Position numbers and translations under genes: made by a program. A stretch of DNA of 62,301 bases, counting the filler. It is 8 parts of 8 records of this genome, joined end to end, with 100 filler letters (N's around TTAATTAATTAA, not from the genome) between each part and the next. Parts side by side here need not be neighbours in the genome. Positions count along the whole stretch, not along the records: positions 35,446 to 41,117 come from SRR7504441_1462; 7 more parts are not named here. The stretch is one strand, 5' to 3'. Below the pieces are notes generated by a model that made no database searches, was not told the origin of the DNA, and worked only from the letters and a program-made list of their open reading frames with translations. The first letter of the stretch is position 1, and each line of letters opens with the position of its first letter. Below, in pieces: positions 24,067 to 51,000 of the stretch.

Positions 24067-24561
24067 CCCGTATCGGTGAGGGTCGGCCTCGTCGTCGGCC
24101 GCTGCTGGGTGGCGGCAGGAGCTGTGTCCCCGCAGTCCGTGGACGCCCAACGGCATTCGCATTGCCTGACAGACCGGATGAACCGAATGCGGGTCGCGTG
24201 TGCGGTCGATTGATTGAGAACGGCGGGGCGGGGCTGCAAGAGGCTGGGAACGGGAGCAGAATTGGAAACGCGGTACGCAATTGCGCAACTGGTAAGATCA
24301 AGCTCTCGAGCTCCCGGGTATATGATTGCTCTCAATTAACGCAACTAAGAAAACAGTACGGGCTTTGCGCGCATGTTGCGCGGAGTAGTCCGCTCAGAAA
24401 ATGGAGACAGAAACCCTGGCGCACGTGCACCGACGCGCACGGACCGACGCTTTTCCCACCGTCCCAGCCTCAGTCAGCCGCAACACTGACTTGACCTACG
24501 ACTGCCTTCACGAGAGTCAACGGCAAGCAGCGGCGCGGGTGCGGTACCAAAGCCGTCAGCA

Positions 24562-26524
24562 ATGTTAGACTACTTTTGCATCATCTCGGCCGGCGGGATC
24601 ATCCTGTGGCACTGGTTCCCGCCCGGGGCCGCGCGCAGCCCGCTGCCCGGCAACCCGGTCAACCGGCTGATCACCGACGTGCTGATCAAGGTGGCCGTGC
24701 GGGCGGGCGGGCTCACCGGGGGGCAGACGCGGGCCGGAGTCGAGATCAACAGCTTCAGCGTGGCCAGCTACACGCTGCGCTGGCTGCGGGCCGGCGAGCA
24801 CCAGCTCTTCTACGTGGTGCGCCGCCCGGCCGCCCCACGGCCCGAGCAGCCCCCAGGCGGTTCACCAGAAGGCGCTGGCGCTCTCTTACGTCGAAGGGCT
24901 GCTCGACACGGCACGCCGGGCCGGGGGGGCGCCCGGGGAGCGGCGGGGCAGGTGCAGGCCGGCTTTACCAAGGCCTTCGGGCCCCGGCTGCTCGCTGCGG
25001 ACTACAACGGCCTGTTCGAGTGCCGGGCTGACCGGCCGGGGCTGACCGGCCGGGGCAGCTTCGACGGTCTGTTCGAGGCGACCTACGAGCAGGCGCAGCT
25101 GGCCAAGGCGCAGCCGGTGCGGCTTCCCCAGGCCGAGGCTGAGGCCGCGGGGCAGCCCAAACAGGCATCCAAACGAGAGCCTGCTGCCGAGCTGCAGACC
25201 AAAGAGGAGGCTGTAGGAGAGTCGGAGGAGGTTGCTAGTGATGTGAGCAGCAACATCGCCAGAATGCGCGGTGCGGCCGGGGCCCGGGGGGGCGGAGCGG
25301 GCGGCAGGGCGGGGGAAGCAAGGGAAGGCCGACATTATGAACCGTAAGAGCAAGGGCAAGTCAAAGAGCGAGCGGAGCAACGTCAAGGAAGGCCGGGACT
25401 GGGGCGATAGCAAGAAGATCAGCAAGGAAGAGGCGGCGGCCATAGATTACACCCAGGGCGACCAGGCCGAGGGCGAGGAGGCTACCATTCGCAGGATGCG
25501 TGCGGAGGTGATGCCAGCAAGCGACGAGCCTGCGGACTGGGACGACGAATTCGAGGAGGAGCCGGTGCAGCAGGAGTCGGCCGGCATATTCTCGCGGCTG
25601 GGCTCGATGATCAAGTCCAAGCTCGGGCAGACGCCCCTCACGCGTGATGAGCTCGAGGCGCCGATGCGACAGTTCGCACAGCAGCTTATTTCTAAGAACG
25701 TGGCGTTCGACACAGCCGAGGCGGTCTGCAGCGATGTGACCGCCCAGCTGGAGGGCCAGACGCTGGGCACCTTCGCCCGGGTGGCCTCCGAGTTTAGGGA
25801 GGCGCTCTCGCTCTCCCTGGAGCGTGTGCTCACGCCGACTTCGTCCATAGACCTGCTCCGGGGCGTCGCCAAGGCGCAGCAGCAGCGCCGGCCGTACGTG
25901 GTGGTGTTCTGCGGGGTGAACGGGGTGGGCAAGAGCACCTCGCTGGCCAAGATCTGCTACTTCCTCAAGAGCAACCTGCCTGGCGGCGGCAAGGTCTTGC
26001 TCTCTGCGTGTGACACGTTCCGGGCCGGTGCAGTCGAGCAACTCAAGGTGCACTCGCGCTGCCTCGAGGTGGACCTGTACGCCGAGGGGTACGAAAAGGA
26101 CGCGGCAGTGGTGGCCGGCAACGCGATCCGGAAGGCCAAGGACGAGGCTTACGACGTGGTGCTGGTGGACACGGCAGGCCGGATGCAGAACAACGGTCCT
26201 CTGATGGCCGCTCTGGCCAAGCTGATCGACTCGAACCAGCCGGACCTGGTGCTGTTCGTGGGCGAGGCGCTGGCCGGTAACGACGCGGTGGACCAAGTGA
26301 AGCTGTTTAACCAAGCGCTCGAGGTCAACTCCAAGGCCGAGCAGCCCAGGCTTGTCGATGGGATGGTCCTGACCAAGTTCGATACGGTGGACGATAAAGT
26401 GGGCGCGGCCATCTCGATGGCGTACACCACCGGCCGGCCGATCTTCTTTGTCGGGACCGGCCAGCGCTACGTCGACCTGAAGCGGCTCAATGTCAAGCGA
26501 GTGGTGGCTGCGCTGCTCAAGTGA
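24562..26524 (+). CDS. SRPRA: Signal recognition particle receptor alpha subunit, multi-exon
   Basis: Longin N-terminus MLDYFCIISAGGIILW..NPVNRLITDVLI. NG GTPase motifs GVNGVGKSTSLAK, DTFRAGAVEQL, DTAGRMQ and TKFDTVDDKVGAAISM. Confidence 0.98.
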
Positions 26525-26913: not shown

Positions 26914-29900
26914 AGCCTCAGTTAGCTGCGCATCCGGCCTTTGTAGCTCTTGTACCATTTCTAGCTGAGCTTTCGTCTCACATATCACAGTGGCTGACAG
27001 ATTCATCCACGCTGCCCGTACTTGATAACAGTCAGGTGCAGTCTATTGAAGCTGTCATACAGGCACGGTACAACCTGACGCAGTGGCTGTCCCGGCAGCT
27101 ATCTGTGCAGCTGCCTCAGCTCATTATGTACTGGAGATGGCTCTGCAGTCAGCTCGTGGCTGCTTCCTCCCACAGTCTTGTGGTCTCTCCTTTCCTCGAG
27201 TTGCTTATTAGCAAGGTGAATGAGTCAATGGATTACGATCCTGTAGCAAGGAAGAATTGGATGTGGAAGAGATACGGCTTTGGATCTTTACCTTCGTCCA
27301 CAGGTCAGGCAGAGATGCTCAATGCATTGTGTGCCGTCGACTCAGCGCTCATGGTGAAGGCCACAGCAGAGTATGCGGCTCCAGCGCCTCCTCACCACTT
27401 TGCTCTGGTTGCAACAACTGCAATAAAGCATGATCTGCTGGAAGGTTTAGCCACAGCTTCGTATCTTTGTCAATCAAACGCTGGCAATCCAGCCACTGGA
27501 AGCCCGGGTGAGCTCATGAATGCTATGATCCAGCTGCCAAAAGCACTAAATTTGCGTCTCGAACAGGCCGCCAAACAAACACAGCGGGTCTACGAACACT
27601 TGCAAACCAATGAATCAGATTCACTGCTGCAGCGCAGGCGCATTTGGGCGCTTCATGACCTAGAGTCTGTCAAGGACGAATTGAGAGTGCTTACTACTGC
27701 TGTTTCCATGACCATGTTTCCAGAGAATGCAGATGCGAGCTCAACCATGTATCTTAAGCAGGTTCGCCAATTTTTGTCTCATGCACTGGAGCACAGTAGC
27801 CGTGCTCCTTCGGAACTGCTTCCCTATAAGAGTATTGAGTGGTTGCTGGCCTTACCAGATGCAAACTGCCTGCAGCCTTGGCTACCAGGCTTGGTGCAGC
27901 AGGCTCTCGGGTCTTGGTTGTCGAGGCTGTGGACCGGCGCATTCAATTTGATCACATGTCATAGTGAGAGAGGCAGTGTTTCGTCTGGGCTGTTGGATGG
28001 TCCCTCGTGGCTGACCAATGGCGGATGGATCCCATTTGCACCTTCCGGGTTACTGGTATCACAGGACGAACAGATAGGGAACAAAGGTGAGCGCATCTCA
28101 GAGTTGGCTGGTCTACTGCGGTTTCTGTGCCGTGAACCGGAGGAGCTACCGCAGACTGATGTCGCCGAGTGCGAGATTGAGCTCCTATGGAGTTTGCTTA
28201 TGGATGTGCTCCAAGCCTACAGGTCCCGTGCATAGTTTGATTTTGATGAGTATTTGTACAGGAGCACCTTCCCAGCTGTTCAAGCCCAAGCAATCCTTAC
28301 TTTAGCTAGGTCTCGAAGAGCAATTCCTCTCGAAAGCTTTGCTTCGTCGTGTGATGCTTTGTTGTCCTCGACTTGTAAGTCACCATACAGCCGCCACTTG
28401 CACCTTGGGAATTACTTGTGCGTATGTAGGTGCAAAGCTCCTCTCTGACGGTTCTAGCATGCTGGTGGGTGCTGCACACTCTGTGCAGAAACGGGGACAT
28501 GCTTGGTGTGTTTGAGCGCATGCTAAGGCTAATACGTAGTTACAGGTGCTTGATTGGTCTCTCTCGATTCCTATTGCTTGTTCCAGCAACTGTTGTCGAT
28601 CCGTGCGAAAAGGCTGCCATCAAAGTGGGACTTCTCGAAGCTCAACTTCAGGAGTTGTCCGTGGAGCTCTCATTCCGGACTAAAATCCAACAGCAGACTG
28701 GGAACTGCGACGAGTTCCGCATCAGCTCTCTGAAGGGCCAACAGGAAAGCACAATAAAGGCTTTGGCAGAGAATACTGGAGCAGCAAGGATGCGCCCAGT
28801 ACCACCAACATTCACTGCGCTAGTCGAAGAACTGAGGCACGTACAATCCGATGTCCTGTCACACAAACGCATCTCAGCAATCTTGCAGGACTGCAGTAGC
28901 GTTGAAGCTTTTTGTCTTGCCGAGAAAGCGTGGCAGTCGTCGTGCAGCCAGGTTTTATCGAGAATGCAGCGATCGTATCCGATGTATGGAGATATAATCC
29001 ACCCGCTGAGCAGCGCAGCTGGAAGCGTTAGACACGGGCTTCGGCTGATTTCACTGAATATTTCACAGACAGCACAGCAAACCCCTCAGCGAGTGGCTCT
29101 TTGCGACAGTGTCGTTTCTTTGGTCCAGTTTCCCTCTTCTGCGAGAATATGCGGTCGTTTGAATAATTTGCTCAAGTTGGTCAAGCAGATCACTGCATCT
29201 GGCGATGTATTCCCATTGGCTGCTGCCACGCCTGCAATGCTTGCTCTCTTTGCGCGCGTAGAGCTCCAGGCTCTCTCGACTGGTCTGCTTGTGCACTCAA
29301 TCGTTCAACTTTTGGACGAGACTTGCTCCGTATTTGTTGGCACCTGGAGGCGCGCAAAGGATGCTGAGCGTGTTCGCAGACTAGAGGCCGAGCAGCTGTA
29401 TAAGTATAAAGAGACAAGCATAAGCTTAGGCGATCAGGAACAAGCAGAAGAAGCTGAGCTCCGTGCTATGTTCCCTGAGTACTCTCAGTATTATGCTGAC
29501 CTTGAGCACCACGATGGCGATGTTGGGCTTGAGAGTGGTGGCAAAGATGCTTCAAATGAGGCCGAGCAATCCACCGTTCTTGAAGCCACGGTTGATGCGA
29601 AGCATACACATCGGATCATTGATACGCTGCGCTCTCTATTCAGCACGCTTCTAACTGCCGGTACTCCACAGCCCTCTGACGGCGAGCACTGCAATGAGCG
29701 ACGCCTCAAGTTAGTCAATCTTGCCCATCGTACCATGGCGGTAGTGGTCCCAACACTCGCCCCTACTGGACTACTCGATGAGCAGGCAGCAGCAGCCATG
29801 CAAAGTGGAGAAGCTGCGATCACTGCAATGCTCCATCAACAGCTTTGCGGGGCTCAGCCTGTGACCACAGAAGGGGACGCTGATTCAGAGGCTTATGACA

Positions 29901-32900
29901 TTTACAACGATCCAAACATTGAAGAACTTCGTCTTGTTCAGGCACCTGTTCACGGGTTCACCACCAGAGTGCAGGAGCTTTTACACGAATGGCCTGAGCA
30001 GCCAATCTTGGAGCAGCTACTCAAAATCGGAAACCGGCTTCTGGAGCAGCCCCTCACGTCACCTGTCATGAAGATCGTTTCTGGTTTAGAACTTCTGCTG
30101 CGCAAAGGCTATGACTGGGAGCAGTGTGCACACAAGGGTGTTTCGTTGTCGTCCCAACTCGATGTTATGCAAAAACTAGTGGGGCGATGGCGCCGCATGG
30201 AGCTAGAATCTGCGAGGCAGCTTCTCGACTCGCGTGCTCAAAGCCATGTGGTAAAGGCCTCCAAGTGGTGGTTTCATCTATATGCCCTGGTGCACAGCGA
30301 CACGATCGATGATGATAACTTTGAAGTGGAAGGCCTTGAAGCTACTTTTGAAATTCTTGACAGTCTTCTCTCTAGTTCAAATGTTGGAGACTTTTGCGAA
30401 CGGCTCAAGCTGATGGAAACAACTTATCAACAGCTGGCTGCTGAGTTCGACGTTCAGTACTCTCGGCCACAGGAGGGCACTGAATCGGAGATGAATCGGC
30501 GACGGGGGCTACTGCATATCATATATCATACCCGAAGATACTATGAACAGTTCGCGGTTTCGGTTACCAAGCATGTGCGGGCGCAGCGAGATCCGATAGA
30601 AGATCGATTGAAGCACTTTGCCAAGCTAGCTCGATGGGACATTGAAGATTACAACTTCCTCGTGTCAGCCAGCGACAAGTCCCATCGAACAATTATGAAG
30701 TGCATGCGGGATTTCGACATGGTTCTCAACACCAAGGTCTCAGTCCACCTAGAACCGCCTTTGGAGAGTTGGCGAGACCACTTTGGAACGGCCCAGCCTG
30801 TGACAAACATGACACACGATGGCGCTAAGCGACGGAAGCTGCAGGCAGGGACAGCCACAGGAGTTACTGCCCAAGAAATCCCCGGCCTACCTGCTTGGAT
30901 AGATACCTCATCTCTGCATGCGCCAACGGAGGAAAAGATGTACTGCATGAGGCTTCCATCTCTGCTCTCAAAAATGGAATCTAAGCGTAGGATCATCATG
31001 AAGCACGGAATGGCTGAACTTGGCGGGTATTCAGCTGCATCCTCTGTACGATCTATACACGATCGCATAGCTCTGCGAACAGCATGTTGGACTGATGAAG
31101 AGGTGAGTAGAATGATTAAGCAAGCGGCACTTGCAGATGTTTTCAAATGGCTGAAGCTGTCTGGCCTGTCTTTTCACGCCTCTGCGGCCTCTCCGGAGCA
31201 GAAAGATCTTCAGGCGCTGTTCCTCAGTTTGCAACCAAACGAAGTGTGCCATTCAGACTTTTCTCCTACGCCGTGGGTTGATGCGGACTGTGGCCTTTAC
31301 AAATGCTTGGCAAGGACACTGCGTCTGAGGCAAGTGGCTTCGCATGCCTGCAAGGATGTTCAGAGGCTTGAAGTCACAAAAGGTCTTAGATTCGTCGAGC
31401 ATGTCCTCGCCCTTGTGCTCCGCGGGCACCGAGTGTGTACTACAATTGTCAAAGATACGAGGCAACTCGATAGAACTATAGAAGCGCTCGAAGCGTTCAC
31501 CGCTGATTATGGACAAGAGGTCTCTCTTCCTCAGCAGGAACTGCTCCAAAAATGGCTTGCCCAAGTCAAAAGTTGCTGTGATGACCTACTCGAGGTGCAT
31601 AACATTTTGCCTAGCGAGGGGTCGTGATTTCTGTGGCTTACAGGTGCTTGTTGAAACGTCGATGCTTTTGGATTCTGTGGCATCGACGCGGGTGCTTTCT
31701 GGCGAGGTAGCTTCACTGGGACCATCGATCCATAAAGTGAAGGCTGTCAAATGTCTGATTGACAGTGAAGTAGGAAAGGTTTGCAATTATCCGTTATTGG
31801 CACCGAGCACGCTCAAGCTTGTGAAGGACAGCTGGGCTGAGCTGTCATCTGTAGAGACGCCGAACGCTGGGCCTCTCACCACCGAGTTGTCAAAGACCAT
31901 CGAGACTGTCCAAGCCCAGAGTCTACAGTTTGAGGCAGAAATGGCAGCAGCTAGCAGTTCACCTCCCAAATGTGACGGTTCACCAGCAATCAAAGCTGCA
32001 GAGAGTGTAGTCAGAAAGGTGCTCATCTCATTTGAGAAGCTAAGCACGCTGAGCGAACAGCATGATCACGGCCCATTGTTCCCAACCCAAGAGGAGGAAA
32101 GCGTTGCAGCCGACGACGATGAAGCTGTTGACAATGATGGTGCCAAGCAAAACTTGAATTTGGTTGACACAGTAGATCAGATGGAGACACTTTTGGCATC
32201 TTTGGGAATGCAGCCTCTCCGCTTGGCTATCAGCGAACTCCTGCGAGAACTGGTCATCTTATCGAAAAGCAAGGTGGAAAAGTGGCATGGTTGGTTTTCG
32301 CTCCTATGCTGTCTACGCAGTGCTCTGGTTCAACTGCAGGACATCATGAGAGGCGCAATGATTGGATCGACCACGCTGCAATTTCAGCTCGTATCAATTC
32401 AGTATACACTAGGGAGTCTTTTCCAGGAGCTGTTCCAGAAAGGCTTTGCTACCAAGCCGGAGACAACAGACGAAAAGCAAGAGGGCAACGAAGAAGTGAA
32501 GGATGGGACAGGCATGGGTGAAGGTCAGGGATTAGAAGATGTTTCAGAGCAGATTGAGAACCAAGAGCAGATCGAGGGCCTCAAAGATGAAAAGCAGGAA
32601 GATCTGAAGAAAGAAGAAACCGAGGATGACCGTGATAAGGGTGTCGAAATGACGGATGACTTTGAAGGCGAGATGGAGGACATGCCTGCTCCTGCTGAGG
32701 ATGAAGAAAAGGAAGGCAGTGAGAACGAAGATGAGAAGGAAGAAGTGGATCGCGACATGGGCGATGCAGGTGATGATGCTGACATTGTTGATGAAAAAGC
32801 CTGGGATAGTGAAGAAGACAACGAGATAAAGGACGAGGAGAAGATGGAAAACAATGCGATGGACGCAGGGGAGGACGAGCCTGAAATGCAAGCCAAGCCA

Positions 32901-35445: not shown

Positions 35446-35697
35446 TGTGTACTGGTAGATACATGATGTGTATAGAGCGGTCTACTAGTGGGTCTGAGTA
35501 TTAGATTCAATTTAAGTTACTCCATAATACTCAACTAGTTCGAGATCGCTGTCCCGTAAAGCCTCTCTAGTTGTATGATAGTCATCGCGTACGTACTAGC
35601 AGCGAGGAGCAAGCATCCAAACGACACGAACTAGTTGACGTCTCGAGGCCAGCTCCTCCACCACAGATACTCCTGAGTACTCTGCATCAGCAGACAG

Positions 35698-38600
35698 CTA
35701 CTTGTCGTAATGCTTCATGAAATCATAGAACGCGTAAGGGCTAGTATCAGCTCCGTGCTCGTAAATAAATCTAGAAGCCACGCTCATAGAGAAAATCGCC
35801 TGGGCACCAACCAAACATCAGTCACCGATCGCTTAGCTCTTAAAGCCTACCTGCAGATAGTTTTCAGGCACACGCTCTAGAATCCGATCCAGCCCTCCTT
35901 CGACGTTATTCTGAAGTGAAACCGGAATTGCCTCAGCCAGCACCAGCCGTCGGACTTGATGATTGTCATAGAGCGAGGACCGGCCAATCTCATCATTCAG
36001 CGCATTCATCGCCATCGACAGCTCGTCAGTCGCCCGGGTGGACCTGTGCAGGATTCCGTTAACTGACAAGCAGTTAGGGTTATTTTTAGCGCGTGCCGTT
36101 TGCCCCGGAGGGTCTCAGCGTAGATAAGCCCGAACTCCATGGAAGCGTTCCGTTCGACCACTTGGATGATGTCACTGACGTATTCCTGTGTCCGTTGGCT
36201 TATATAAGAGGCTGTTAGGTTGACATGGGATGACGCACCTCGTAGAATTGAGGCACGGATCCGCCGTCTTTAACGCACCTGCCACCGGACTGTTAATTCG
36301 GGTTAAAAGTGTGTTAAGAACATCATTGAAGAGAACTCTTGCTCGTTCATCGCCAGACCGGCCAGCACCTGATTCGAATTCAAACCGACGGTTATTTTAA
36401 TAACAGCACCTCCAGCGAGGACGAGGTGACTCCGCCCTTGTTGGTCGAAGCGTCCTTGAACAGTTTCACCTGCGATTAACTGTCACCATTCAAATTCGAA
36501 TTCGAATTCACCCCCCGGTCTTGCAGCACGTCACGAGCGCCCTCCGTCACAAACAAGTTGGCGCCTTCTACGAGATACTTGAACCTGGCTCGCGCTCGCC
36601 CGGGGCTCCAGCAGCGACCCAACCTCGGCTGGCCGGAGTCGTCAAACATCAGGTGAACGTTCTCGTTGTTGACTGAACCTAACGACTTTTTAGTCAGAGC
36701 GGCACGGCCAATCAGAGTAAGTGGGCACCAGGCCGTCCGCCGCACGGCACAAAGAAGTCGGCCGACATTCCGGGCCACAAATGGAAATTATTCCGGAACT
36801 CGATGCCCGATTTGACCTGGAAAATGCCGTTATTTATGAGCGGCTGTCGGAGGTCTCAGAGACCTCGGAGCCGTCGGGCAGAATTTTGTTTGTGTCGTCA
36901 CATTTGACCAGAAAACCGTCCGGCGAGAACTGAAATCGGCTCAAGATCCAGTGCCGTTACTATATATATTGTTGTTATTGTTATTGTTATTTTACCTGGC
37001 CCTTGAAATGTTCGACCATTCGCCGCTCAGTTGCCAGCCTCGTGATCGCCTCCCGATCCAGACCCTGCTTAACACTTCAGGCCCAATTAGGCAATATCAG
37101 TTAACCTGAGGGTCGCACAGCACCCCGGAGCCATCCACAATCCCCACCTGCCCGGATTCCAACCGCATTCCAACGGCAAATCCGTTACTATTTTCTCCTT
37201 GCTCATTAGGATTTCGTTCGATCCCAAGTCGCCATCCGGACCTCCCGTCATCAGCTTGGTGCACTCAGTCTCCTCCATTTGAAGCCGTTCCATCAACCTG
37301 TTAATATTCAGCTCCAGATTTAAGTCCCAACCGACCCTGTAACGTACGCCCGGACCGATCGGGTGGTCATGCCATAAGTATCGTGCGGTACGCCTCCCAT
37401 TGCTGTCGATTTACCTGATTTGGATTGACCAACAGTCAACACTTAGCCACAGGATGGCTGGACCGGTGGTGAAGGAGCGCCAGAATGAGTAGCCCCGGTC
37501 GCGAGAGAAAAGCGAGGCCTGTCCGGCCCAGCTGAGCGTATTCCCTAATCAGGCAGGTATGACGGGCCTATTTCTAATTATAGGCGAGTGCCTGGTCCAT
37601 GAATCCGGCGGTGCCCTCGTCAGGCCCGAGGAAGAGATACTCCTTCCGCTTGTAACGGTCCTTGATCGAGTCGTCGCTCTCTTTCAGGACCTGTGACACT
37701 GTGACTCTGTGACACTAACTGTTCGCGCACCAGGTCCATCAACGTGTCTACGTACTGCATCATCGACCGCTTCGATTTGTGCTGCCGAGCTGGTTTCATC
37801 AAGATTGTACCCTTCGAGCCTGACTCCGGAATATCCTTGTTCTTGAGCTTCTGTTAACCACAGAGAGAATAATAATCAGCGTTTTCAGTCAAGTTTTCCC
37901 TAATTAGGCAAGCCTCGCGTGACCTGGGTGTGAGCCAGATTGTAAGTCTCTTGGAACTGAGTCCGGCGGTTCGAGTGATAAGTCTCCGGTGATGACTGAA
38001 TCATCCGAACCCCGCCGCGCGAAATGTCACGGAACCGGACCTGTGACATGCCGTTGGGGCGGTTGGGATTTAATTAGTAATTAAAATGTCACGTGGAATC
38101 CGGTGAAGTCGAATCCGAGCATCATAAAGACTGAGAATGGCACCTGCAGTTCGAGTCGGTTGGAAACAGTTACTCAACCGGGAACGGACCTCGGGGATCG
38201 GGTGGTCCTGCAGGAACTTGGAAGGGTCCAACCGCCACCTGCTCGATTTGAATTCATAATTCAAACGTCGCACCCGATCGCCGACATCGACTGAGCCTTC
38301 CACAGGTTGGTGGTTGTAACACTCTGGCCAAACCGAACGAACTGCTGAAGTATCTTCCTCTCGTCCTGCAAATTGCCGTTATAATGCCGTTGGAATCGCC
38401 CAACGGACACCTCTTTCCGGGTATTAGCCACAATCTGCTCAACGTCTGGATATTCATAGCCCTCGAGCTCGCCGGTAAATTGCCTCGAAAACTCGACGAA
38501 AATGGCCTGGTTTAGGCAAGATTAAGTGGCTGAGCCGGCCAGCGGCGTCTTTGCCTGACAGGTTTCGGGGTTATTTTCAACTGTTGAGTAGAGCTCGGGC

Positions 38601-41117
38601 AGAGTGTAAAATTCGGAGCTCAGCGCCTCACCGGCCTGCAAATTGACTCAAATTCGAATTCGAATTCAAAATGTGACAGACCAGCGTGTTGAGCATGCGA
38701 AGCTCGTCAGGAGAATCCGTTAAATGACTCTTCAGCGCTTCGAAATTCTCATCCGCTTCCCATTGGAAGTAATAAGCAAACCTGAATTGCCGTTATAATA
38801 CCGTTAAAAATCAGTTGCTACCGACAGGCTGAGTGGAGAAAGATCAGCTCCCGGCCAGAGAGCGTATTGTTCATGAAAAGCTTGAGCAACGGGGTGTCGG
38901 GAATGGTGAAACTGCCATTAATCAAGCCCGCCGCGTGGCCAGGAGGGCACCCCATTGCAAGGTAGGGAGTGACGTTTTGGACATCCAACTCAGACATTGG
39001 CTTTGCGAGGAAGCAAGAATACACAGTCACGCCATTGGCAAACGAGTCGGCGTACTGCTTCTTGACCTGCCAAATCAGGCAATCGTGACGTCCGCGGTTT
39101 CCTAATTAGGCAAGTCACGTCCAGGTTTAAGTGCTGCATCATCTGTGTGAGCACTCGTAGATGGCGAGCCGAATGCGCCTGAAGTAACGCCATTTAATCC
39201 CCAACCGCCCCGCCCCCACCTGAGGGTTGGGCTCGTTCCGGTAGTCGGACGACCCTGGATTGAGCACAGTCAGCCGTTGGGATTAAAAGTGTGTTAACCG
39301 GCTCGATGCGCGATCACGAGCTTCTGAGATCCGTCGTAGTGGTCGTACAGTTCGATCACCTGACCGGTTTGAATTCAAATTTCAAGCTCAAGACGGTTAC
39401 AGGGTGCGGCTTTTGTATCGCAGCCATCACTTGCTCTTGGTACTGCCCCCAATTAACGGTTAATCCCAAAAATGTTTGAATTCGAAAGAAACCTGCCACA
39501 GGATCGACTGCGGCTTGGACTTTAGAAAGTAAGGCGAAGCTGTCAGGTGCAAATCGTCCTCATCCATCGCCACCGACCTGCACACCGATTATTATTTAAC
39601 CATAATTCGAATATGAATATGAATTAAATCAATCACCGGGTCTCAAACTCGGACCGCTGGATCTGGCCCCACAATAACTGCCGGATTCGAATTCAAATTG
39701 TCACCTGGTAGATCTGTAGCGGCAGCTGCTCGGTCGAGCTCACCCGCCAGCTCTGCTCGTCGTCGATTTGGACAGCTTAACACACATTAATCAGCACTTA
39801 ACACACATTAACCAGCACTTAACCCTCCAACCCTGACGGGGTCTCGACGCAAGTTAAGACACTTTAAAATGTCTGTTAGTTGCTCAGACCTGGCGCTGAA
39901 GACTTGATGTAAGTCAGATGGTACGAATCCGGCGACGAACTGATGTAGTCCTCAACCTACAACCGACGTTTAACCGACACCAACCCGACAATCCGACCTC
40001 GCGCTGCGCCTCGTACTCGGTCCGTGCAGTGAACAGCGCAAGCATCGAGTCCTTGGAGCTGACCACAACGGCAATTGGTCAGATTTAACGGCAATTCCAG
40101 TCGTTGCACCGCATTTGGAGCGAGATTTTCTCGGGGTCTCCGCCAATTTCAGCGACCTTGAGTGGCGATTTCAGCGGCGGCGGCAGCCGGGTGATCACAC
40201 CTTCTTGGCTGCGATGAACGCGTGGACGTGCCTGGCCCCCGGTCAACGGACATTCAACGGAAATTCAACGGTAATACTATTGATAATGATGCTGATAGTT
40301 ACCTGGAGATTTGAGCCGGGTTGAAAAGCTCGAAATAGTAACCGTCCAAACCGAGCTTATTAAAGTAATAATCGACCTGTCAACGGACATCATCAACCCC
40401 ACCGGCCAGGCTGATTAATTGTATATATTATATTTAATATTTAAATGGGCGATTTACCTCGTTGAAGACAGTCGGGAGTGAGAAAACGCCTTGTTTGACA
40501 ATCAAATTGAGCACCTGAAATTTGAATTCAAACAGCCAACGGGAGCACAGCCGGACCGCCTCCATCTGCTGCTTCCGCTCGCCAGCCATCGAGTCCAGAC
40601 CAAGTATCGGCGCCTGCCAGCCTCATCGTCATACCCTCCGAGGTCGACCCGATCTCACCTGTCTGAGCTTGTGAGCCAGCACCGTGTGCCCTGCCCGGAC
40701 GGCGTCGTGAATCGGCAGCCTGTGCCCCCGGGCTCAGTAACGGATCCCAACGGACATATCGTAACGGACCCGCCCAGCCTATCAAACTGGTTCCCGGCGC
40801 CCTGCCCTCGCCGGTTAACTCTTATTTAATCGATTCGGCCGCCTGCGCGAGCAGAAAGTCCACAATCTCTTCGTTGCCGTTGGAGGCCGCCACCTGCCGT
40901 TGCCGTTACTCCAACGGCAGCCCGGTCTAAGCCGACGCACGTGCAACGCTGTCCGTTGATCATAGTCCCGGGACGAAGGATCGGCCCCCTCGCTGGCTAC
41001 CTGCACCCCGCGCCGTCTCAGGGAGCTCAGATTGGCATCAACGGCGGCCCAACGGACATTCAACGGACATTACCGGCAGTGGGAGTAGCGGGGGTGGGGG
41101 TGGGGGGGGGGGGGGGG
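35698..41117 (-). CDS. GDH2: Large NAD-specific glutamate dehydrogenase (GDH2-type) with N-terminal ankyrin repeats; about 44 mini-introns; 5' end truncated
   Basis: Manual splicing gives one frame containing GFH/VRFRDISRGGVR, Q/KLKNKDIPESGSKG, LFLGPDEGTA, FTT/GKS..GGVPHDTYGMTT, TGGPDGDLGSNEI, FVPCGGRP, VEGANLF, KDASTNKGGVTSSSLE and ASRFIYEHG..AFYDFMKHYDK* (stop 35698-35700). N-terminus: DYDQRTALH/VAASNGNEEIVDFLLAQ/GA..LPIHDAVRAGH. Confidence 0.95.
39777..39823. repeat. Intronic tandem repeat, 21-nt unit, about 2.2 copies
   Basis: TTAACACACATTAATCAGCAC followed by TTAACACACATTAACCAGCAC TTAAC. Confidence 0.9.
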
Positions 41118-45760: not shown

Positions 45761-46053
45761 GAAGCTCTCGTCGATCCTGCCCTCCGGTAAGCCCAGCAGC
45801 GCCGCACCGGACCCGGAGGACTGGGTGCGCGATAGTGTGTTGCCCCAGGCCGAGAAGGGCGAGCCCGGGGACAGCGGCTGCTGGTTTGTGGACCAGGCCA
45901 CCCCGTGGCTCGTGTTCACCCCAGGGGCCCGCGGCATCAGCTGGTCTCGCCACGAGCGGCACCGGCGGCCCTACCGGGAGCTTGTCAATGTGTCCGTTAT
46001 TTGCCGCGGCCGGCCGGCTCGCCCTACATCGTACTCTACTGGCTACCTGCAGG

Positions 46054-47592
46054 ATGTGCGCTCGGTTGGCGGTCGGGCTGCTGCTGCTGCTGCTGCTGGC
46101 GCCGGCCAGTTCGCACGAGCACGGGCACCTGATGATGCCTTCGCCCGCGCTGGCTGGCTTCACTCCGGTGCCCCTCAACGCCAGCTTCACACGGGTCCCG
46201 CTCCCCGTCGAGGGCCGGCTGCCGAGCTACCTCAGCGGCACGCTGTACCGGGGCGCCCCGGGGGCCTGGCCGGATGGCTGGTGGCTCGACGCGCTGGTGA
46301 CGCTGCACAGTTTTGAGTTTGGCGATGAGTCGGTGCATTACTCGATGCGTTACTGCAAGGACGAGGTGTACAATCGCACCCGCGCCCCGCCCGCGCAGAT
46401 GCCACAGGCGGGCCCGGGCAGCGGCGAGATGCCACACCCGGCGAACAGCTCGTGGCCCACCGGAGTGGCGTTTCACCACGTCGACGGACAACTGCTCAGC
46501 TCTACTGGGGTCTCCAACGCCAACCAACTGGACCCTGCGACGCTCGAGCCGATCCAGCTGCCGTTTGAGTACGCGGACGAGCTGGGGGCTCCCTACCTGG
46601 CTCCAACGCATACCGTGACGGTCAATGGCAGCGTGCTCCACCACCTCGTCTACGGTGTGCAGACAAGAGATAGCGAGCAGGGCTACACCGTGACTGAGAT
46701 CCGTCCGGGCAGCAGGGCACGCCAAGTGCTGGCCAAGATCGCCTCGCCGCGAGCCTCATCCTGGCGGGGGTTGCCCTCTTTCCAGCACCAGGTCTCGGCC
46801 ACCGAAGACTTCTATGTCATGCTTGAAGCGCCCTGCTACTATCCGGAAAAGCCAAGCCCGCTCGGTTCAGTAGACTGGGTGGATTGGGGTTGGAACCCTT
46901 TAGCTGGGACTCACATCCGACTGTTGGACCGGCGGACTGGCCAGTCGCAAGTCTGGCCTGTCACGCACAATCTATTTGCCATCCACCACATCAACGCCTA
47001 CAAGGATGAAGCGAGCAACAGCCTGGTCCTTGACGTCATTCAGACCTTTCCTTCAATCGTCCCGTGCTCCCAAGCCTTCAAGAGCCTCACCCTAAACCAT
47101 TCAGTCAACGACTGGCAGCAGAGTGCCAAGGGCATGCAGATGTCCACCCCCAGAAGATTGCAGGTGCCCCTGGACCGCCCGGGCGCTCGCATTTCACCCC
47201 AGGAACTCGGCTCTGCCCGGGGCATGGAGTTCCCTACGATTCGCTACGACCAACTGGCAGGCCGCAAGTATACGTATGCATATGGTGTTTTCTGGCAGGG
47301 CAAGGCTTCGGCTTATTACGATGCGCTGATCAAACTGGACGTTCAGCGAGGCAATCACACTACATGGGGGCTGCCTCAGCATTACGTGGGCGAGCCCATC
47401 TTTGTGCCAGACCCCGAGGGCTCTGCTGAAGACGATGGTGTGCTTATGACCAACGTGCTGGACGCTGTGGGCAAGCAGACTTTCTTGGTGGTGCTGGATG
47501 CCCGCACAATGACCTTGGTAGCGAAGGCCGGACCTACTCCGATTGTGATCCCCCATGGGTACCACGGGCGGTACTTCGACGATCGATCTTGA
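46054..47592 (+). CDS. Carotenoid cleavage oxygenase (RPE65/BCO family) with N-terminal signal peptide, intronless
   Basis: VEGRLPSYLSGTLYRGAPG, four candidate Fe-ligand His (APTH, FQHQ, IHHINAY, PHGYHG), EFPTI and GEPIFVPDPEGSAEDDGVL. Leader MCARLAVGLLLLLLLAPASS. Confidence 0.92.
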   Translation: MCARLAVGLLLLLLLAPASSHEHGHLMMPSPALAGFTPVPLNASFTRVPLPVEGRLPSYLSGTLYRGAPGAWPDGWWLDALVTLHSFEFGDESVHYSMRYCKDEVYNRTRAPPAQMPQAGPGSGEMPHPANSSWPTGVAFHHVDGQLLSSTGVSNANQLDPATLEPIQLPFEYADELGAPYLAPTHTVTVNGSVLHHLVYGVQTRDSEQGYTVTEIRPGSRARQVLAKIASPRASSWRGLPSFQHQVSATEDFYVMLEAPCYYPEKPSPLGSVDWVDWGWNPLAGTHIRLLDRRTGQSQVWPVTHNLFAIHHINAYKDEASNSLVLDVIQTFPSIVPCSQAFKSLTLNHSVNDWQQSAKGMQMSTPRRLQVPLDRPGARISPQELGSARGMEFPTIRYDQLAGRKYTYAYGVFWQGKASAYYDALIKLDVQRGNHTTWGLPQHYVGEPIFVPDPEGSAEDDGVLMTNVLDAVGKQTFLVVLDARTMTLVAKAGPTPIVIPHGYHGRYFDDRS

Positions 47593-48085: not shown

Positions 48086-51000
48086 ATGGCGCGGAAGAAG
48101 AAGAAGAAGAACCCTGACGAGCCGGCCCCGCCTTTGTCCCCTCGCTCCCGATTCAATGCGGCACTCGAGCCCGCGCACCCGGAGCCGGCAGCGGTGGTCC
48201 AGCAGCTGCTAGCGGACGGCTTGCTGGCCCTAGAACAACCCGACGAAGCGGGGCACACGCCGCTGCGCCGAGCGGTAGCCGCCGGGGCCTCGTCGGTCAT
48301 CCGGCTGCTTGTGGAGGCCGGCGGCTCGGTGAACAGGATTTCGCCCAGCGACCAGGCGCGTTGCGCCCTGCAGGCCGGCGAGCGAGGGGGACAGGCGCCG
48401 TTGCTCCATTGCGCGGTGACGCACGGGCACGAGGACGCGATCTGCGCCTTGCTGGAGGCCAAGGTGCCCCCTCCCCCCCTGGGCCCGGCACCTCAGTCTG
48501 TGTTCAGGCTGAAATTGAGGCGAGATGCGACGGCGGTAAAACAGCCCTGATGCAGGCTTGCAGCAGCGGACTCGCCTCAGTGGCCTCATGCCTGATCGAT
48601 GCCAAGGCTGACACCCTCGCGGTCGACAGCAACGGCACAAGCGTGCTCCACATGTCCAACTCGGTCACTTGTTGCGAGCTGATTCTACGACATCTGGCTG
48701 GGTTCGAGCCCGGTCGCCGGCACGACCTGGCGCTGACAGCCGACTTGGACTATTCGCCGCCCCCGCGCCAGCACGAGATCCCTCTGGCACACGAGCCTGA
48801 AGCCACGTCGCTCCCGCCGGCGCCATTCCTTAGGCCTCCTCGAGATTCAAGGATCGGCCTGTGGTTCGAGTCTAGTCTGGGGGCATGGGAGCTCCTCGGC
48901 AAGGAGCGTGAGGTGGTTTTTCCGTTTCATCACCTACCGGATTACGCATCGGAGGTCTTGAGAGCCTGCCAGCCACTCACCTGTTGTGGCAGGTGTTGCA
49001 CGTGTGTACTGTAGCCGAGCTTGTCCTGGGCCGGGAGTACAGGGCGGCCATATCGGCGGTGGCGCCGGATCCGGGGCTGGACTCTGGGCTGTACCAGTCA
49101 TGCCTGTATGCTGTCCTTGAGGCCGGAAAGCATCTGCTCACCTGTGACAGTTGTGGTGAGTCGAGCCAGGTCGCCAGATTACCCTCGGCTGGGCTCAGCG
49201 GTGCGGGCCAGGATGCGGCCATTGCGCGTGAGGAACTCCAACACTTCACTGTCGCTGCGTTTCAGGTCCAGCTACTCACAGTGTTGGGCTGAACCGGGGC
49301 TGCAGGAGCTTCTGGGAGGCAAGGCGGTGGAGCTGGGTATTGGAGAGGTCCAGAATGTAAGCCCTTGGCTGGCGGGTGCGATGGTGGACATGATTGCCGC
49401 CGGGTGCCTGTGCCGGCCGCGCCGGCGTCATGCCGGGTAGGTTTTTTGGGCCAACATTTTGGGCCAAGCGAGCAATCTTCCTATGCGAGGATCCTATAAA
49501 GCAGCGGCAAATGTATCGAGCCGAGAACCTTCAGCCGGACAACTACTTTCTGCAGGCATGCGGCTAGTAAGACCAGGCTTTACACTATGTATGGCCAGGT
49601 TCCTCTGGCTGTTGAGCCGACTCAGGACGCTGTCACCTCAGCTGAGCGGAGATTGCATGCATACACCTCCGCTGGGTGTGCTCTGGTGGCGGACGTCATA
49701 CCTGGGATCCATCCGGCGTACTCAGAGATGACCATGCGCCAGATGCTGCTCGACTGTGAGATCTTACACGAACGAAAGGCGGCATCCATCCGGCGAAGGA
49801 AGAAAAAGAAGCAGGGTCATTTGCAGGGGAGTATCACAGTGCAAAGGCAGTTGCCTGAGGCAGTGAGGGCGTCAATCAAAGCTTTCTGGGGGCGGTTGGA
49901 CAGAACGGCACGGAGGCGGTTGCTCCAGATCCCGGATGAAGCATTTGATAATGCAATCAGGAAGAGCCGACATTGGGATTTGCTGAAATATTTTGATGAG
50001 AATTACGATGAGTTTGGGCCCAAGGGCTTGCTCGATATCGACGACCAGTCGGGGCATATCACCGTGGGCAAAGGCCTGTTGGGTGTGGAGAGTATATTGC
50101 GGGTGCTGGATGCTAGGCAATTAGAGCAGCTTGAGCCTAATTTTAAGTCAGGAGAACAGATGAGCCAGGTGCGCTGCGTGATTCCTGTTAGCTGGCTGAG
50201 CTTGGGTGGTCGCAGGCGGCGGGGAAGGCACTCTATGAGGGGCTGGCGCTCTTGCTGATGAGGGAACAGCTTGTGTGCGCGCATGGTGAGTCATCAAGGG
50301 AGGAAGCAGCGCTGCGATTACAGGATGAACTGATCAAAGCGGAGGAGGAGGAACGGGAGCGCAAGGAGAAGAAGGGTAAAAAGGCCAAGCAGAAGGCAAA
50401 GAAGGTGGTGCTGCTTGAACCTGATCCGCCCAAAGAGGAACCAACAGCACCAGAAGACGAGGACCCGCAAGAAGTGGTGGAGGAGCAGAGTGATGAACAA
50501 GAGGAGTCGACCACAGCCGAGGAGCGGGAGCAAAGTGAATCTGAGGAGGAGGGGGCTATGCTGGACAATCCGCTAGACGACGAAGACGACATGCTAGATG
50601 CGATGGTGGCAAGTACTCAGCGGAGGAACAAGATTTCCGTAATCCAGGCAGCTGACAAAGGGGATCCGGGTGAGGAGCGGAGAGGTCAGAGCAAAGTACG
50701 ACTGTGCCAGCGGTATTTCAACACAGGAGAGTGCCTACGACGGGCGGAGTGCTGGTATGCGCACAATCTTGAGGAACTCGAGGCCTCGGCTCGGCGGAAC
50801 TTCAAGACTCGACCATGCCATGCGTTCCAAGCTGGTAACTGTAAGTTTGGAGCATGCTGTACTTTTGCGCATGGTGCGAATGAGCTGAGGTTGCCAGAGG
50901 ACCCAGTAGTGCTCCCCCCTGTACCGCGAGTTGGGAACACGAAGAGCGCAGAGCCAGCAAATAGGCGGAACCAGTCAGTTTCCAGTTGCAAGCCTTGTGA

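Follow-up and report, generated by a model that had tools for sequence, protein, structure and literature searches.

Gene model and splice sites

Why should the many short introns of a single gene draw on a small vocabulary of shared motifs? The question is raised by an ankyrin-repeat and NAD-specific glutamate dehydrogenase (GDH2-type) gene on the minus strand at 35698..41050 of the window (the whole 62,301-nt stretch of DNA analysed). The contig end truncates its 5' end, and its stop codon is TAG (35700..35698). Spliced protein-to-genome alignment of three transcript-derived homologues (P0028, P0023 and P0015) against the contig gives 44, 43 and 45 intron calls, respectively, 39 of which are identical in all three (the core introns). 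The aligner was restricted to GT/GC donors and AG acceptors, so other splice types are invisible to it. Four further introns were settled by enumerating in-frame parses, giving 43 modelled GT/GC-AG introns, to which the contig end adds one or more, in agreement with the roughly 44 of the preliminary description. Once the 43 introns are removed, one open frame of 1067 aa results, with 66-68% identity to the three homologues over ~1050 aa. The stretch 39726-39889 is ambiguous, with one or two introns. Pfam searches of single stop-free stretches find ELFV_dehydrog and GDH_2nd at sub-threshold level only, while the full-length homologues carry PF23147, PF23152, PF05088 and PF00208 together with ankyrin families.

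The introns are 35-114 nt long (median 46, n = 43) and the exons 26-193 nt (median 63.5). The last exon position is G at 37 of the 43 introns and the first position of the next exon is G at 36, with GH there at 33; the acceptor is CAG in 39. Phases are distributed 28/4/11, and seven of the nine AG|GT sites in the spliced coding sequence are occupied by an intron. This site and phase pattern is the one expected if splice sites were recruited from coding sequence. On the basis of frame restoration and homology in this one gene, the segments are best explained as ordinary U2-type spliceosomal mini-introns (GT or GC ... CAG), one per ~120 nt.

Motif families in the introns

Motif counts in the 39 core introns were compared with 1000 dinucleotide shuffles, the control that the preliminary description had called for. 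TTYGAA (14 copies against 2.0 expected; 1 in exons), GAATTC (9 against 0.7; none in exons), GCCTNATTNGG (5 against 0.01; none in exons) and TGTCAC/GTGACA (7 against 0.9) all exceed it, with 0/1000 shuffles as high in each case. YAACGG/CCGTTR occurs 26 times in 15 of the 39 introns (2.0 expected, largest shuffle 8, 0/1000 as high; 6 in exons). The longer TTYGAATTC has 20 matches in the window, 18 of them on the GDH contig (0.36 expected, largest shuffle 4). The nine TTYGAATTC arrays and eight YAACGG/CCGTTR clusters reported earlier are all present, and these motifs are far above control. The reported recurrence of TGTCAC likewise stands, but GTGTTAA falls short of significance in the core introns (2 copies, 0.33 expected, 40/1000 shuffles as high); all 43 introns together hold five copies, in four introns. 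Exactly one family is found in 22 of the 43 introns, at least two in 8 and none in 13, so it was an overstatement that most are dominated by one family.

The TTYGAATTC introns, all on the minus strand like those that follow, are 40515..40556 (42 nt; TTTGAATTCAAA palindrome and CCGTTG), 39663..39704 (42 nt; TTTGAATTCGAAT and GTGACA), 39578..39636 (59 nt; ATTCATATTCATATTCGAATT, a degenerate AATTCG array), 39443..39492 (50 nt; TTCGAATTCAAAC and TTAACCGTTAA), 39360..39400 (41 nt; AAATTTGAATTCAAAC; alignment and parse enumeration), 38636..38681 (46 nt; CTGTCACATTTTGAATTCGAATTCGAATTTGA), 38239..38273 (35 nt; TTTGAATTATGAATTCAAA inverted repeat), 36470..36511 (42 nt; (GAATTC)3 array and GTGACAG) and 36369..36409 (41 nt; GTTATTAAAATAAC palindrome and TTTGAATTCGAAT). 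These nine can be aligned only across a ~15-nt core.

YAACGG clusters lie in 40894..40940 (47 nt; three copies including an inverted pair), 40720..40769 (50 nt; three direct TCCGTT copies), 40232..40302 (71 nt; CCGTTGAATNT, an 11-nt tandem of three copies), 40059..40109 (51 nt; two copies of AATTGCCGTT, which on the opposite strand reads as the AACGGCAATT unit found in introns 38782-38821 and 38366-38410), 38782..38821 (40 nt; AACGGTATTATAACGGCAATT), 38366..38410 (45 nt; CCGTTGG/CCAACGG hairpin and TAACGGCAATTTGCAG) and 37148..37188 (41 nt; TAACGG and CCGTTGG, 11-nt tandem). The probable extra 5' intron, 41001..41073, has a GT donor at 41073, candidate acceptors at 41026, 41017 or 41001, and an 11-nt CCGTTGAATGT tandem array.

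The gene contains all five of the CCTAATTAGGCAA boxes described earlier; two copies are exact, a third departs from this sequence at one position and the other two at two positions each. The CC(A/T)6GG (CArG) rule said to describe them fits only the two exact copies. They lie in 39067..39118 (52 nt; two boxes, TTGCCTAATTAGG and TTGCCTGATTTGG), 37851..37923 (73 nt; TTGCCTAATTAGGG), 37519..37591 (73 nt; GC donor; CTGCCTGATTAGGG) and 37065..37105 (41 nt; TTGCCTAATTGGG and GTGTTAA).

Other repeats or modules are found in 40377..40457 (81 nt; AT-rich; TCCGTTGA), 39957..39997 (41 nt; four GTCGG(N)TT), 39776..39889 (114 nt; 21-nt tandem repeat of TTAATGTGTGTTAAGTGCTG type; boundaries ambiguous, from alignment and parse enumeration), 39255..39298 (44 nt; from parse enumeration; CCAACGG and TTAACACACTTTTAA, a module common to 36279..36321, 43 nt), 38041..38092 (52 nt; terminal inverted repeat GTGACAT...ATGTCAC, fold z = -4.1, and CCAACGG), 37691..37730 (40 nt; (T)GTCACAG, an 8-nt tandem of three copies), 36930..36995 (66 nt; (AATAAC)n microsatellite and TAACGGCA), 36817..36863 (47 nt; TAACGGCATTTTCCAG), 36186..36238 (53 nt; CCAACGGACACAG) and 36044..36096 (53 nt; GC donor; TTAACGGAAT).

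Introns without a family motif include 40802..40842 (41 nt; GC donor), 40614..40658 (45 nt), 40157..40200 (44 nt), 39179..39219 (41 nt; G-rich; from parse enumeration), 38912..38950 (39 nt; in frame, stop-free), 38507..38554 (48 nt; GC donor), 37415..37463 (49 nt; TTGAC...GTCAA hairpin), 37298..37335 (38 nt), 36679..36728 (50 nt), 36585..36623 (39 nt; GC-rich, in frame, stop-free) and 35800..35850 (51 nt). Intron 38144..38189 (46 nt), which begins with GTCCGTTCC, lacks an exact family motif.

Longer shared stretches

Pairs of introns have stretches of 16-29 nt in common in either orientation. AACGGTATTATAACGGCAATT is identical at 20/21 positions to a stretch in intron 38366-38410, which intron 37148..37188 matches inversely at 21/25, and CTGTCACATTTTGAATTCGAATTCGAATTTGA agrees with intron 36470-36511 at 20/20 positions when both are read in the same direction and at 25/29 when one is inverted. 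A local alignment score of at least 20 is reached by 95 of 1722 oriented intron pairs, whereas 20 rounds of shuffling gave 3-13 each; the highest scores (40, 38, 37 and 35), several from inverted pairs, lie above the shuffle maximum of 26. An exact word of at least 10 nt is common to another intron in 27 of 43 (shuffles: mean 3.4, maximum 12). The longest intron-exon match is near the shuffled level (mean 9.0 nt, the exon pool being larger; shuffled introns average 8.1). No pair of GDH introns agrees from end to end; the similarity is modular.

Units of 6-21 nt are tandemly repeated in many of the introns as well. A direct repeat of at least 6 nt lies inside 23 of the 39 core introns (8.4 expected), and Tandem Repeats Finder reports arrays of period 6, 8, 11 and 21 in modelled introns or the probable 5' intron. 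Hairpins at the RNA level are not a common feature, folding being clearly better than in shuffles for 4 of the 39. Families show no clustering from one intron to the next: a family is common to 8 adjacent pairs, with 8.1 expected (P = 0.61), and there is thus no sign of nearest-neighbour copying.

The preliminary description saw no such arrays on other contigs. This holds: the seven other contigs contain no pairs within 30 nt of TTYGAATTC, GAATTC, TTCGAA, the box, GTGTTAA or TGTCAC, and a single such pair of YAACGG. Those contigs contain ten candidate mini-introns that are built alike; their best matches to GDH introns have a median of 17.5, compared with 24 among the GDH introns themselves (Mann-Whitney p = 1.3e-4). 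If the contigs share one organism, splicing does not in general depend on the motif vocabulary. Relatives have far fewer interruptions than this gene. The homologous ORFs P0001, P0014 and P0009 (121-198 aa) are uninterrupted; P0009 covers the protein from the KNKDI motif on, where the GDH gene has seven introns (37691-37730 to 36930-36995, counted by eye). Among the cluster members listed are proteins of 924-944 aa on contigs of 8.6-17.7 kb.

Origin of the motif vocabulary

We propose from this one gene, at roughly even odds, that the vocabulary reflects common descent: short DNA modules would have spread from intron to intron by copying and been multiplied by slippage, in the manner of introner-like proliferation. 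Copies of a handful of ~10-30-nt modules would have been placed at other intron positions, in one orientation or the other: (AATTCG)n with the TTTGAATTCAAA palindrome, the AACGGCAATT/TCCGTTG unit, TTGCCTAATTAGG, CTGTCAC and TTAAnnGTGTGTTAA. Replication slippage on the spot would then have produced the arrays of 6-21-nt units. The introns, arising at G|G (AG|GT-like) sites of coding sequence, would form a related, proliferated population of introner-like kind, whose modules need no function after insertion beyond being spliced out. We infer that the sharing is due to copying, by DNA insertion or templated repair, and most of the introns are probably lineage-specific gains. If the modules descended by copying, the agreement with CHR, Myb and MADS sites is likely incidental.

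Speaking for copying are the confinement of the enrichment to introns, the long common words, the internal repeats, the two orientations, the splice-site and phase pattern, the less interrupted relatives and the intron density, together with two adjacent introns whose start is repeated directly at the start of the next exon (GTGAA, 5 nt, in 36470-36511; GTGCTG, 6 nt, in 36369-36409). Against it stand the modular-only similarity, the lack of a family-specific terminal inverted repeat among the GDH introns, target-site duplications that are inseparable from the splice consensus in all but those 2 of 43, the absence of family clustering along the gene, and the 13 introns without any module. Moreover, all copies of the TTGCCTRATTWGG box point the same way (5:0), as do some 3' tails, such as CAATTTGCAG at the end of two introns; whole-element inversion does not predict this. 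The (AATTCG)n repeat could in principle have expanded independently in several introns.

The preliminary description instead suggested a DNA-level role, such as introns serving as regularly spaced protein-binding or nucleosome-linker elements, having seen the motifs in both orientations. Both orientations do occur for YAACGG (13 sense, 14 antisense in 43 introns), TGTCAC (4:3), GTGTTAA (3:2) and AACGGCAATT (2:2), though not for the TTGCCTRATTWGG box, and the palindromes TTCGAA and GAATTC are uninformative. Non-palindromic modules in both orientations point to something acting on DNA rather than a strand-specific RNA signal, and the introns are unusually evenly spaced (exon-length CV 0.43 against 0.66 simulated with the same minimum exon; 0/300 simulations as regular). 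To this extent the description holds, but the results lend no support to the binding or linker role. Enrichment lies in common stretches of 10-29 nt and in tandem arrays, and the matches to the CHR, Myb and MADS consensus sequences are contained within these longer repeats. Only two of the five boxes conform to the CArG rule, and 13 introns are motif-free. The nucleosome core is 147 bp; a centre-to-centre spacing of 121 +/- 33 nt is shorter and does not fit linkers, and no compensation between exon and intron lengths was found that would hold a period. The stretches common to intron pairs, at 16-29 nt, exceed the hexamers listed in the preliminary description.

Comparison with dinoflagellate introns

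A splice-site pattern of this kind is described for dinoflagellates in 10.1101/2020.10.14.339549: the donor (GHNNNN) is weak, GH is conserved behind the acceptor, elements have inserted in both orientations, and in one element class the duplicated AGGH target provides the splice sites at the two ends. The splice signals of the GDH gene are dinoflagellate-like in their weak 5' site, CAG|G acceptors and phase distribution. If its introns were copied from one another, the gene would be an unusually dense example of intron proliferation: it has 13.4 introns per kb of CDS, compared with ~10.4 in Breviolum minutum and ~8.8 in Symbiodinium microadriaticum, as computed from Table 1 of PMC7789003.

An intron-dense glutamate dehydrogenase gene

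The GDH contig (35446-41117; 5672 bases, GC 0.52) carries on its minus strand a 5'-truncated gene for an ankyrin and NAD-glutamate dehydrogenase protein (35698-41050). The right end of the contig is a run of G, 28 bases long (41090-41117), which is possibly a sequencing artefact. On the minus strand, stop-free stretches matched two Pfam domains below threshold, the second domain of NAD-specific glutamate dehydrogenase and ELFV_dehydrog. A homology search with the longest exon as query returned no match; a 42-residue exon containing TGGPDGDLGSNE retrieved 141 proteins, many of them 1050-1150 residues long with ankyrin and GDH2-type domains. Ten of these homologues were retrieved for spliced protein-to-genome alignment, in which donors could be GT or GC, acceptors AG, and introns 18-260 nt long. 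Three transcript-derived, full-length guides, P0028, P0023, and P0015, gave 44, 43, and 45 introns respectively, of which 39 are common to all three (hereafter the core introns). In-frame parses were enumerated and scored with splice-site matrices built from the core introns, which placed three further introns at 39360-39400, 39255-39298, and 39179-39219. The segment 39726-39889 was ambiguous after enumeration, and 39776-39889 was adopted in the model.

Removal of the resulting 43 introns leaves a single frame of 1067 residues ending at a TAG stop codon (35700..35698). Over approximately 1050 residues the spliced product is 68.2% identical to P0028, 67.5% to P0023, and 66.2% to P0015. All 43 have the features expected of U2-type introns: a GT or GC donor and an AG acceptor (the only dinucleotides that the aligner admitted), restoration of the frame and colinearity with the homologues. 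On the strength of frame restoration and homology, the 43 segments are predicted to be spliced. A further intron probably starts at the GT at 41073, within an 11-nt tandem array where the candidate acceptor is ambiguous; because this would join the 43 modelled introns, the count of about 44 in the preliminary description is correct.

The introns are 35-114 nt long (median 46) and the internal exons 26-193 nt (median 63.5), at a density of 13.4 introns for each kb of coding sequence. Of the donors, 39 are GT and four GC, with no consensus past the dinucleotide, and the acceptor is CAG in 39 of the 43. A G directly precedes the donor in 37 introns and opens the next exon in 36, that exon beginning with GT in 23 cases and with GH in 33 (the latter tallied from the junction list). 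No polypyrimidine tract was found in the introns, whose GC content is 0.48 against 0.55 in the exons. Intron phases 0, 1, and 2 number 28, 4, and 11 respectively, phase 1 thus being rare. Seven of the nine AG^GT sites of the spliced coding sequence (the caret marks an exon border) are occupied by an intron. Downstream of the stop codon, at 35446-35697, ACTAGT or ACTAGC was seen by eye four times in 250 nt.

Intron motifs and the longer modules that contain them

The introns had been described as built from a small vocabulary of short motifs, and every motif position named there is present in the sequence. The 39 core introns were compared with 1000 dinucleotide-preserving shuffles. TTYGAA occurs 14 times (2.0 expected; largest shuffle 7), GAATTC nine times (0.7 expected), YAACGG/CCGTTR 26 times (2.0 expected; largest shuffle 8), GCCTNATTNGG five times (0.01 expected), and TGTCAC/GTGACA seven times (0.9 expected), and none of the 1000 shuffles equalled any of these counts. 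GTGTTAA/TTAACAC occurs twice against 0.33 expected and is not significant in the core introns because 40 of the 1000 shuffles equal its count. The exons (3091 nt) contain one TTYGAA, six YAACGG/CCGTTR, and two TGTCAC/GTGACA, and no GAATTC, GCCTNATTNGG, or GTGTTAA/TTAACAC.

The longer word TTYGAATTC occurs 20 times in the whole window against 0.36 expected, and 18 of these copies lie on the GDH contig. Consistent with the earlier impression that such arrays are peculiar to this contig, the other seven contain no two motifs within 30 nt of each other, bar one YAACGG pair, and the repeat units were not found on them or in the 250 nt 3' of the stop codon. At least one family is present in 30 of the 43 introns (exactly one in 22, two or more in eight) and none in 13. 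The sense to antisense ratio is 13:14 for YAACGG, 4:3 for TGTCAC, 3:2 for GTGTTAA, and 2:2 for AACGGCAATT. TTCGAA and GAATTC are palindromic. The proposed independence of orientation is sound for YAACGG, TGTCAC, GTGTTAA, and AACGGCAATT but does not extend to the TTGCCTRATTWGG box, for which the ratio is 5:0, all sense.

These hexamers are fragments of longer shared units. All intron pairs were locally aligned in both orientations with the splice dinucleotides trimmed, and 20 rounds of shuffling served as control. A score of at least 20 was reached in 95 of 1722 comparisons, against 3-13 per shuffle round, and the highest pair scores (40, 38, 37, and 35) exceed the shuffle maximum of 26. The introns 38636-38681 and 36470-36511 both contain GAATTCGAATTCGAATTTGA exactly and, when one of them is inverted, agree at 25 of 29 positions, with the non-palindromic CTGTCAC inside the match. 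AACGGYATTATAACGGCAATT is 20/21 identical between 38782-38821 and 38366-38410, and the latter shares with 37148-37188 a 25-nt stretch, GATTCCAAC.GCATT..AACGGCAA, that is 21/25 identical when inverted. TTAACACACTTTTAA is exact in 36279-36321 and 39255-39298. Altogether, 27 of the 43 introns have an exact word of at least 10 nt in common with another intron (shuffle mean 3.4, largest 12), and intron-exon word matches lie close to the shuffled level.

Repetition within introns is also frequent: direct repeats of at least 6 nt occur inside 23 of the 39 core introns (8.4 expected), and Tandem Repeats Finder reported arrays with periods of 6, 8, 11, and 21. In a multiple alignment, the nine TTYGAATTC introns agree over a core of no more than about 15 nt and differ in their flanks. 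The similarity among introns is modular and not that of whole elements. Direct repeats at the intron boundaries average 3.5 nt in the core introns and coincide with the AG^GT...CAG^GT consensus; they reach 5-6 nt in only two of the 39, a pair of adjacent introns in which repeats of 5 and 6 nt link the intron start to the start of the next exon. Inverted repeats are enriched in the core introns, among which no common terminal pair was found. An exact-word scan of viral contigs found a 20-mer in six phage-like contigs with an unrelated microsatellite; a 14-mer gave approximately 100 matches, which we take as chance.

Other contigs of the window and homologous genes

In the window of 62,301 bases, runs of N around the linker TTAATTAATTAA (at 11354, 26858, 35390, 41162, 47835, 51728, and 58612) join all the contigs, and adjoining contigs are therefore possibly unlinked in the genome. 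The other contigs carry uninterrupted ORFs of 450-1065 codons, among them ORFs for an RPE65-type oxygenase, a Kelch/RCC1 protein, Frag1, an SRP receptor, a nickel transporter, and a two-repeat Myb protein. The closest named relatives of the RPE65-type carotenoid oxygenase (45763-47592, plus strand, uninterrupted; Pfam E = 3e-68) carry the EukProt labels Biecheleria cincta (57% identity) and Yihiella yeosuensis (52%), both presumably dinoflagellates, which hints at the kind of organism assembled. The ORF with two Myb DNA-binding repeats (52495-53511, minus strand) is probably joined to an upstream 938-codon ORF by a 43-nt intron. Two ORFs of the SRP receptor, 24490-25347 and 25247-26524, overlap out of frame with each other where the sequence is rich in G; here, 25271-25307 (plus strand) is possibly an intron of 37 nt, or else the assembly has a frameshift.

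A heuristic intron scan of the other contigs, prone to many false positives in GC-rich DNA, gave candidate mini-introns at 28223-28261, 31595-31643, and 50169-50215 on the plus strand and at 12093-12138, 53509-53551, 56303-56347, and 61881-61924 on the minus strand. The candidates are 39-49 nt long, share the G^GT...CAG^G build of the GDH introns and join long ORFs; they number well below one per kb of ORF, and the GDH motif families are absent from them. For comparison with the GDH introns, ten candidates were chosen by hand, most of them for the long ORFs on either side. Their median best score was 17.5, against 24 among the GDH introns (p = 1.3e-4), with no shared modules, and they are the more GC-rich. 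In relative synonymous codon usage the GDH gene correlates with the three most GC3-rich ORFs at r = 0.71-0.74, and those ORFs with one another at 0.82-0.91.

Among the homologues, P0023 carries the EukProt label Telonema subtile, and more distant ones are labelled diatom and dinoflagellate. Homologous ORFs on three other records (P0001, P0014, and P0009) are uninterrupted over 121-198 residues; in the part of the protein that P0009 covers, seven introns of the GDH gene were counted by eye. The listed members of a diatom-labelled cluster have 924-944 residues and lie on contigs of 8.6-17.7 kb, and long ORFs without interruption occur in relatives at 40-50% identity. A metagenome scan for related loci found one uninterrupted 3.4-kb contig (L001), a scan of genome contigs found 11 loci matched in the ankyrin part only, and an ESM Atlas search with P0028 matched its own family, with no taxa recorded. 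We infer that most of the GDH introns are gains.

Origin of the introns

We propose that short DNA modules would have been copied among intron positions in either orientation and subsequently multiplied by slippage, with splice sites recruited from G^G coding sites. The pattern of sites and phases fits such recruitment. Copying with slippage, as in an introner-like population, fits the observations best because the shared words are long, occur in both orientations and are confined to introns, and because tandem arrays are present. Tandem duplication or templating of exons was rejected as a source of intron sequence, being at odds with intron-exon matches at about the shuffled level and boundary repeats of 2-6 nt. 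Copying from adjacent introns found no support: eight neighbouring pairs have a common family, against 8.1 expected.

By comparison with introners, the GDH introns appear to work like an introner proliferation. Introns at non-homologous positions are similar well beyond expectation, although this similarity is modular (16-29 nt) and lies in one gene, and copies occur in both orientations, as in the inverted 25/29 and 21/25 matches and the balance of YAACGG and AACGGCAATT. We nevertheless do not assign them as introner members, because they have neither whole-length similarity nor a family-specific terminal inverted repeat, because outside the two adjacent introns any duplication is inseparable from the splice consensus, because 13 introns lack modules, and because the box and certain 3' tails are fixed in orientation. 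Tentatively, and with the odds against it, they could represent an undescribed, ultra-short modular form of intron-making DNA. Its units of approximately 30-45 nt, made from a few palindrome-rich modules, would enter G^G sites either way round and be able to saturate a coding sequence at more than 13 introns per kb with narrow exon lengths, perhaps in one gene class of a dinoflagellate-like protist in which the remaining genes have almost no introns. Such units would be smaller and more composite than the introner families in the available text of the papers cited below.

It is unlikely that the modules instead act in RNA, as splicing enhancers or as hairpins joining the splice sites of tiny, weakly marked introns, in the manner of euglenid non-conventional introns or Amoebophrya hairpin introners. 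The weak extended 5' splice site and the missing polypyrimidine tract make extra splicing signals plausible. Sense YAACGG begins 9-18 nt from the 3' end in eight of 12 cases, in five introns TAACGGC would place a candidate branch A at 11-15 nt from the 3' end, and the box is always in sense. The 39 core introns were each folded against 100 dinucleotide shuffles, with 40 exon pieces for comparison; the mean z is -0.45 for introns and +0.18 for exon pieces (one of 40 below -2; p = 0.02). Strong stems, joining the ends or internal, are predicted in 38041-38092 (z = -4.1), 37148-37188 (-2.7), 38366-38410 (-2.2), and 39067-39118 (-2.0), and the longest inverted repeat averages 7.3 against 6.0 in shuffles. 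The first of these introns pairs its own ends through GTGACAT...ATGTCAC, as few others do. Against a role in RNA, however, only four of the 39 introns fold below -2, repeats in many are direct and not inverted, YAACGG is balanced in orientation, 13 of the 43 introns lack any motif, and so do the candidate introns of like size and build on other contigs. On the mean z of -0.45, hairpins were rejected as a general model of the introns. No Rfam family reached its gathering score on the GDH contig.

Independent evolution in situ, in which old or unrelated introns drifted by slippage and mutational bias towards a few palindromic or simple units with no copying, seems distinctly doubtful. It would account for the 6-21-nt tandem arrays of many introns, including simple microsatellites such as (AATTCG)n and (AATAAC)n, and for the lack of clustering of families along the gene. 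It does not readily account for shared stretches that are non-repetitive, namely AACGGYATTATAACGGCAATT (20/21), the inverted GATTCCAAC.GCATT..AACGGCAA (21/25), and the exact TTAACACACTTTTAA, nor for the number of introns sharing words of at least 10 nt. Moreover, the units are not seen in the 250 nt past the stop codon or on other contigs.

We give little credence to a secondary invasion, whereby short mobile or palindromic elements entered older introns and the modules say nothing of how those introns arose. The combination of two families in eight introns, 3' tails that are fixed in orientation while cores invert, and the 13 module-free introns are as such an invasion would predict, but introns with modules are no longer than the rest. 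Apart from the shared 29-nt core, no more than 13-17 nt of sequence remains in 38636-38681 and 36470-36511. Since this remainder is shorter than the shortest intron here (35 nt), the core must already have been present when the intron became spliceable.

The preliminary description read the introns as DNA elements set at regular intervals, either to be bound by CXC/LIN54, Myb, or MADS proteins or to serve as nucleosome linkers. Literal matches to the CHR, Myb, and CArG consensus sequences are indeed present (TTYGAA, YAACGG, and two CC(A/T)6GG), some modules are independent of orientation, and the introns are more AT-rich than the exons. Each match, however, is a piece of a longer enriched repeat, and CC(A/T)6GG fits only two of the five boxes. 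CHR, MSA, and CArG sites usually lie in promoters near the transcription start; these matches sit in gene-body introns. The two-repeat Myb ORF, lying on another contig, is non-specific evidence.

To simulate spacing, 43 introns were distributed over G^G sites, the minimum exon being kept as in the gene. Over 35698-41050 the coefficient of variation of exon length is 0.43 against 0.66 simulated, and none of 300 runs was equally regular. Intron centres are 121 +/- 33 nt apart and exon-plus-intron units measure 75-244 nt. Exon length is uncorrelated with that of the neighbouring intron, and the spread of the units is 34.4 against 34.0 under independence; the evenness is therefore a matter of narrow exon lengths. 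A fixed DNA period found no support, as exon and intron lengths do not compensate each other. A nucleosome core occupies 147 bp, with which neither the mean unit nor the median exon agrees, and the linker interpretation fails on this spacing. Introner insertion has been tied to nucleosome linkers in the available text of PMC9860276, yet bulk nucleosomes are possibly absent if the organism is dinoflagellate-like, going by the portion of PMC2488372 available. Protein-binding or linker elements are thus a highly improbable explanation of the introns.

Burst-like gain of introns in genomes is still debated, and the intron-making elements known so far are mostly recognisable transposons. If the copying of modules is correct, introns of near-minimum size would here still be visibly related, and the gene would be a compact system for minimal intron sequence, splice-site recruitment and the contrast of saturated and spared genes in one assembly. 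It also cautions that short intronic repeats match well-known factor sites by accident.

Comparison with known intron systems

Published introner elements are generally longer. Those of Micromonas, Aureococcus, and other aquatic eukaryotes are, in the available text of PMC9860276, families recognised by their similarity across numerous genes, and target-site duplications or terminal inverted repeats often accompany them. The GDH introns would have in common with them copied, spliced-out DNA, both orientations and a site bias. They differ in that a single gene is concerned, the similarity is modular and the hallmarks are inseparable from the splice consensus. The introner elements of Amoebophrya, as far as the available text of PMC7789003 goes, are comparable in their short hairpin-capable inverted repeats, in having borders marked by direct repeats, and in an alveolate setting. 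Most of those elements are non-canonical, with inverted repeats of 8-20 nt joining the intron ends, whereas all modelled GDH introns are GT/GC-AG and few pair their ends (e.g. 38041-38092).

Gain by double-strand-break repair, described for Daphnia and others (PMC3020277, PMC4202315, PMC3443670), likewise involves AG^GT-like sites, short direct repeats and filler of unclear origin. In the portions available, that model does not predict the sharing of modules among many introns, and no templating from flanking exons was found for the GDH introns. Introns of this size built from shared modules are not described in the introner, double-strand-break repair, or dinoflagellate literature found in a non-exhaustive search and available in part.

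Other parallels are with dinoflagellates. The preprint 10.1101/2020.10.14.339549, in the part available, describes a splice architecture with a weak extended donor and G(H) after the AG acceptor. The GDH gene shows donors without a consensus past GT, G after the acceptor in 36 of 43 introns, GH in 33, and four GC donors, GA donors lying outside the model; this match is a resemblance only. The introner-like elements of Symbiodinium and Polarella glacialis described there share with the GDH introns a very high density with short exons, the weak extended donor, the conserved G(H) past AG, and some GC donors. Common to both are also an excess of phase 0, tied to splice sites recruited from coding sequence, and related introns at unrelated positions in either orientation. 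In one dinoflagellate element class both splice sites derive from an AGGH duplication, and the 5- and 6-nt repeats at the two adjacent GDH introns are, by analogy, the footprint described for the Symbiodinium elements. The GDH introns differ in their length of 35-114 nt, in sharing modules of 10-30 nt and not whole elements, in lacking family-specific terminal inverted repeats, and in showing a target duplication in only two of 43.

Amphidinium carterae offers a further parallel, in the text available of PMC2488372: many of its genes have few or no introns and a few are intron-dense, with 18 introns in a PKS amplicon, and at some introns the same 4-6 bases stand at both borders. That portion makes no mention of tandem arrays or of modules shared among introns. 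In Table 1 of PMC7789003, again from the available text, the median intron of Perkinsus marinus is 49 nt, and from the values of the table we computed densities of approximately 10.4 (Breviolum minutum) and 8.8 (Symbiodinium microadriaticum) introns per kb of coding sequence. With 13.4 per kb, the GDH gene exceeds both of these genome averages, computed for the most intron-rich eukaryotes described.
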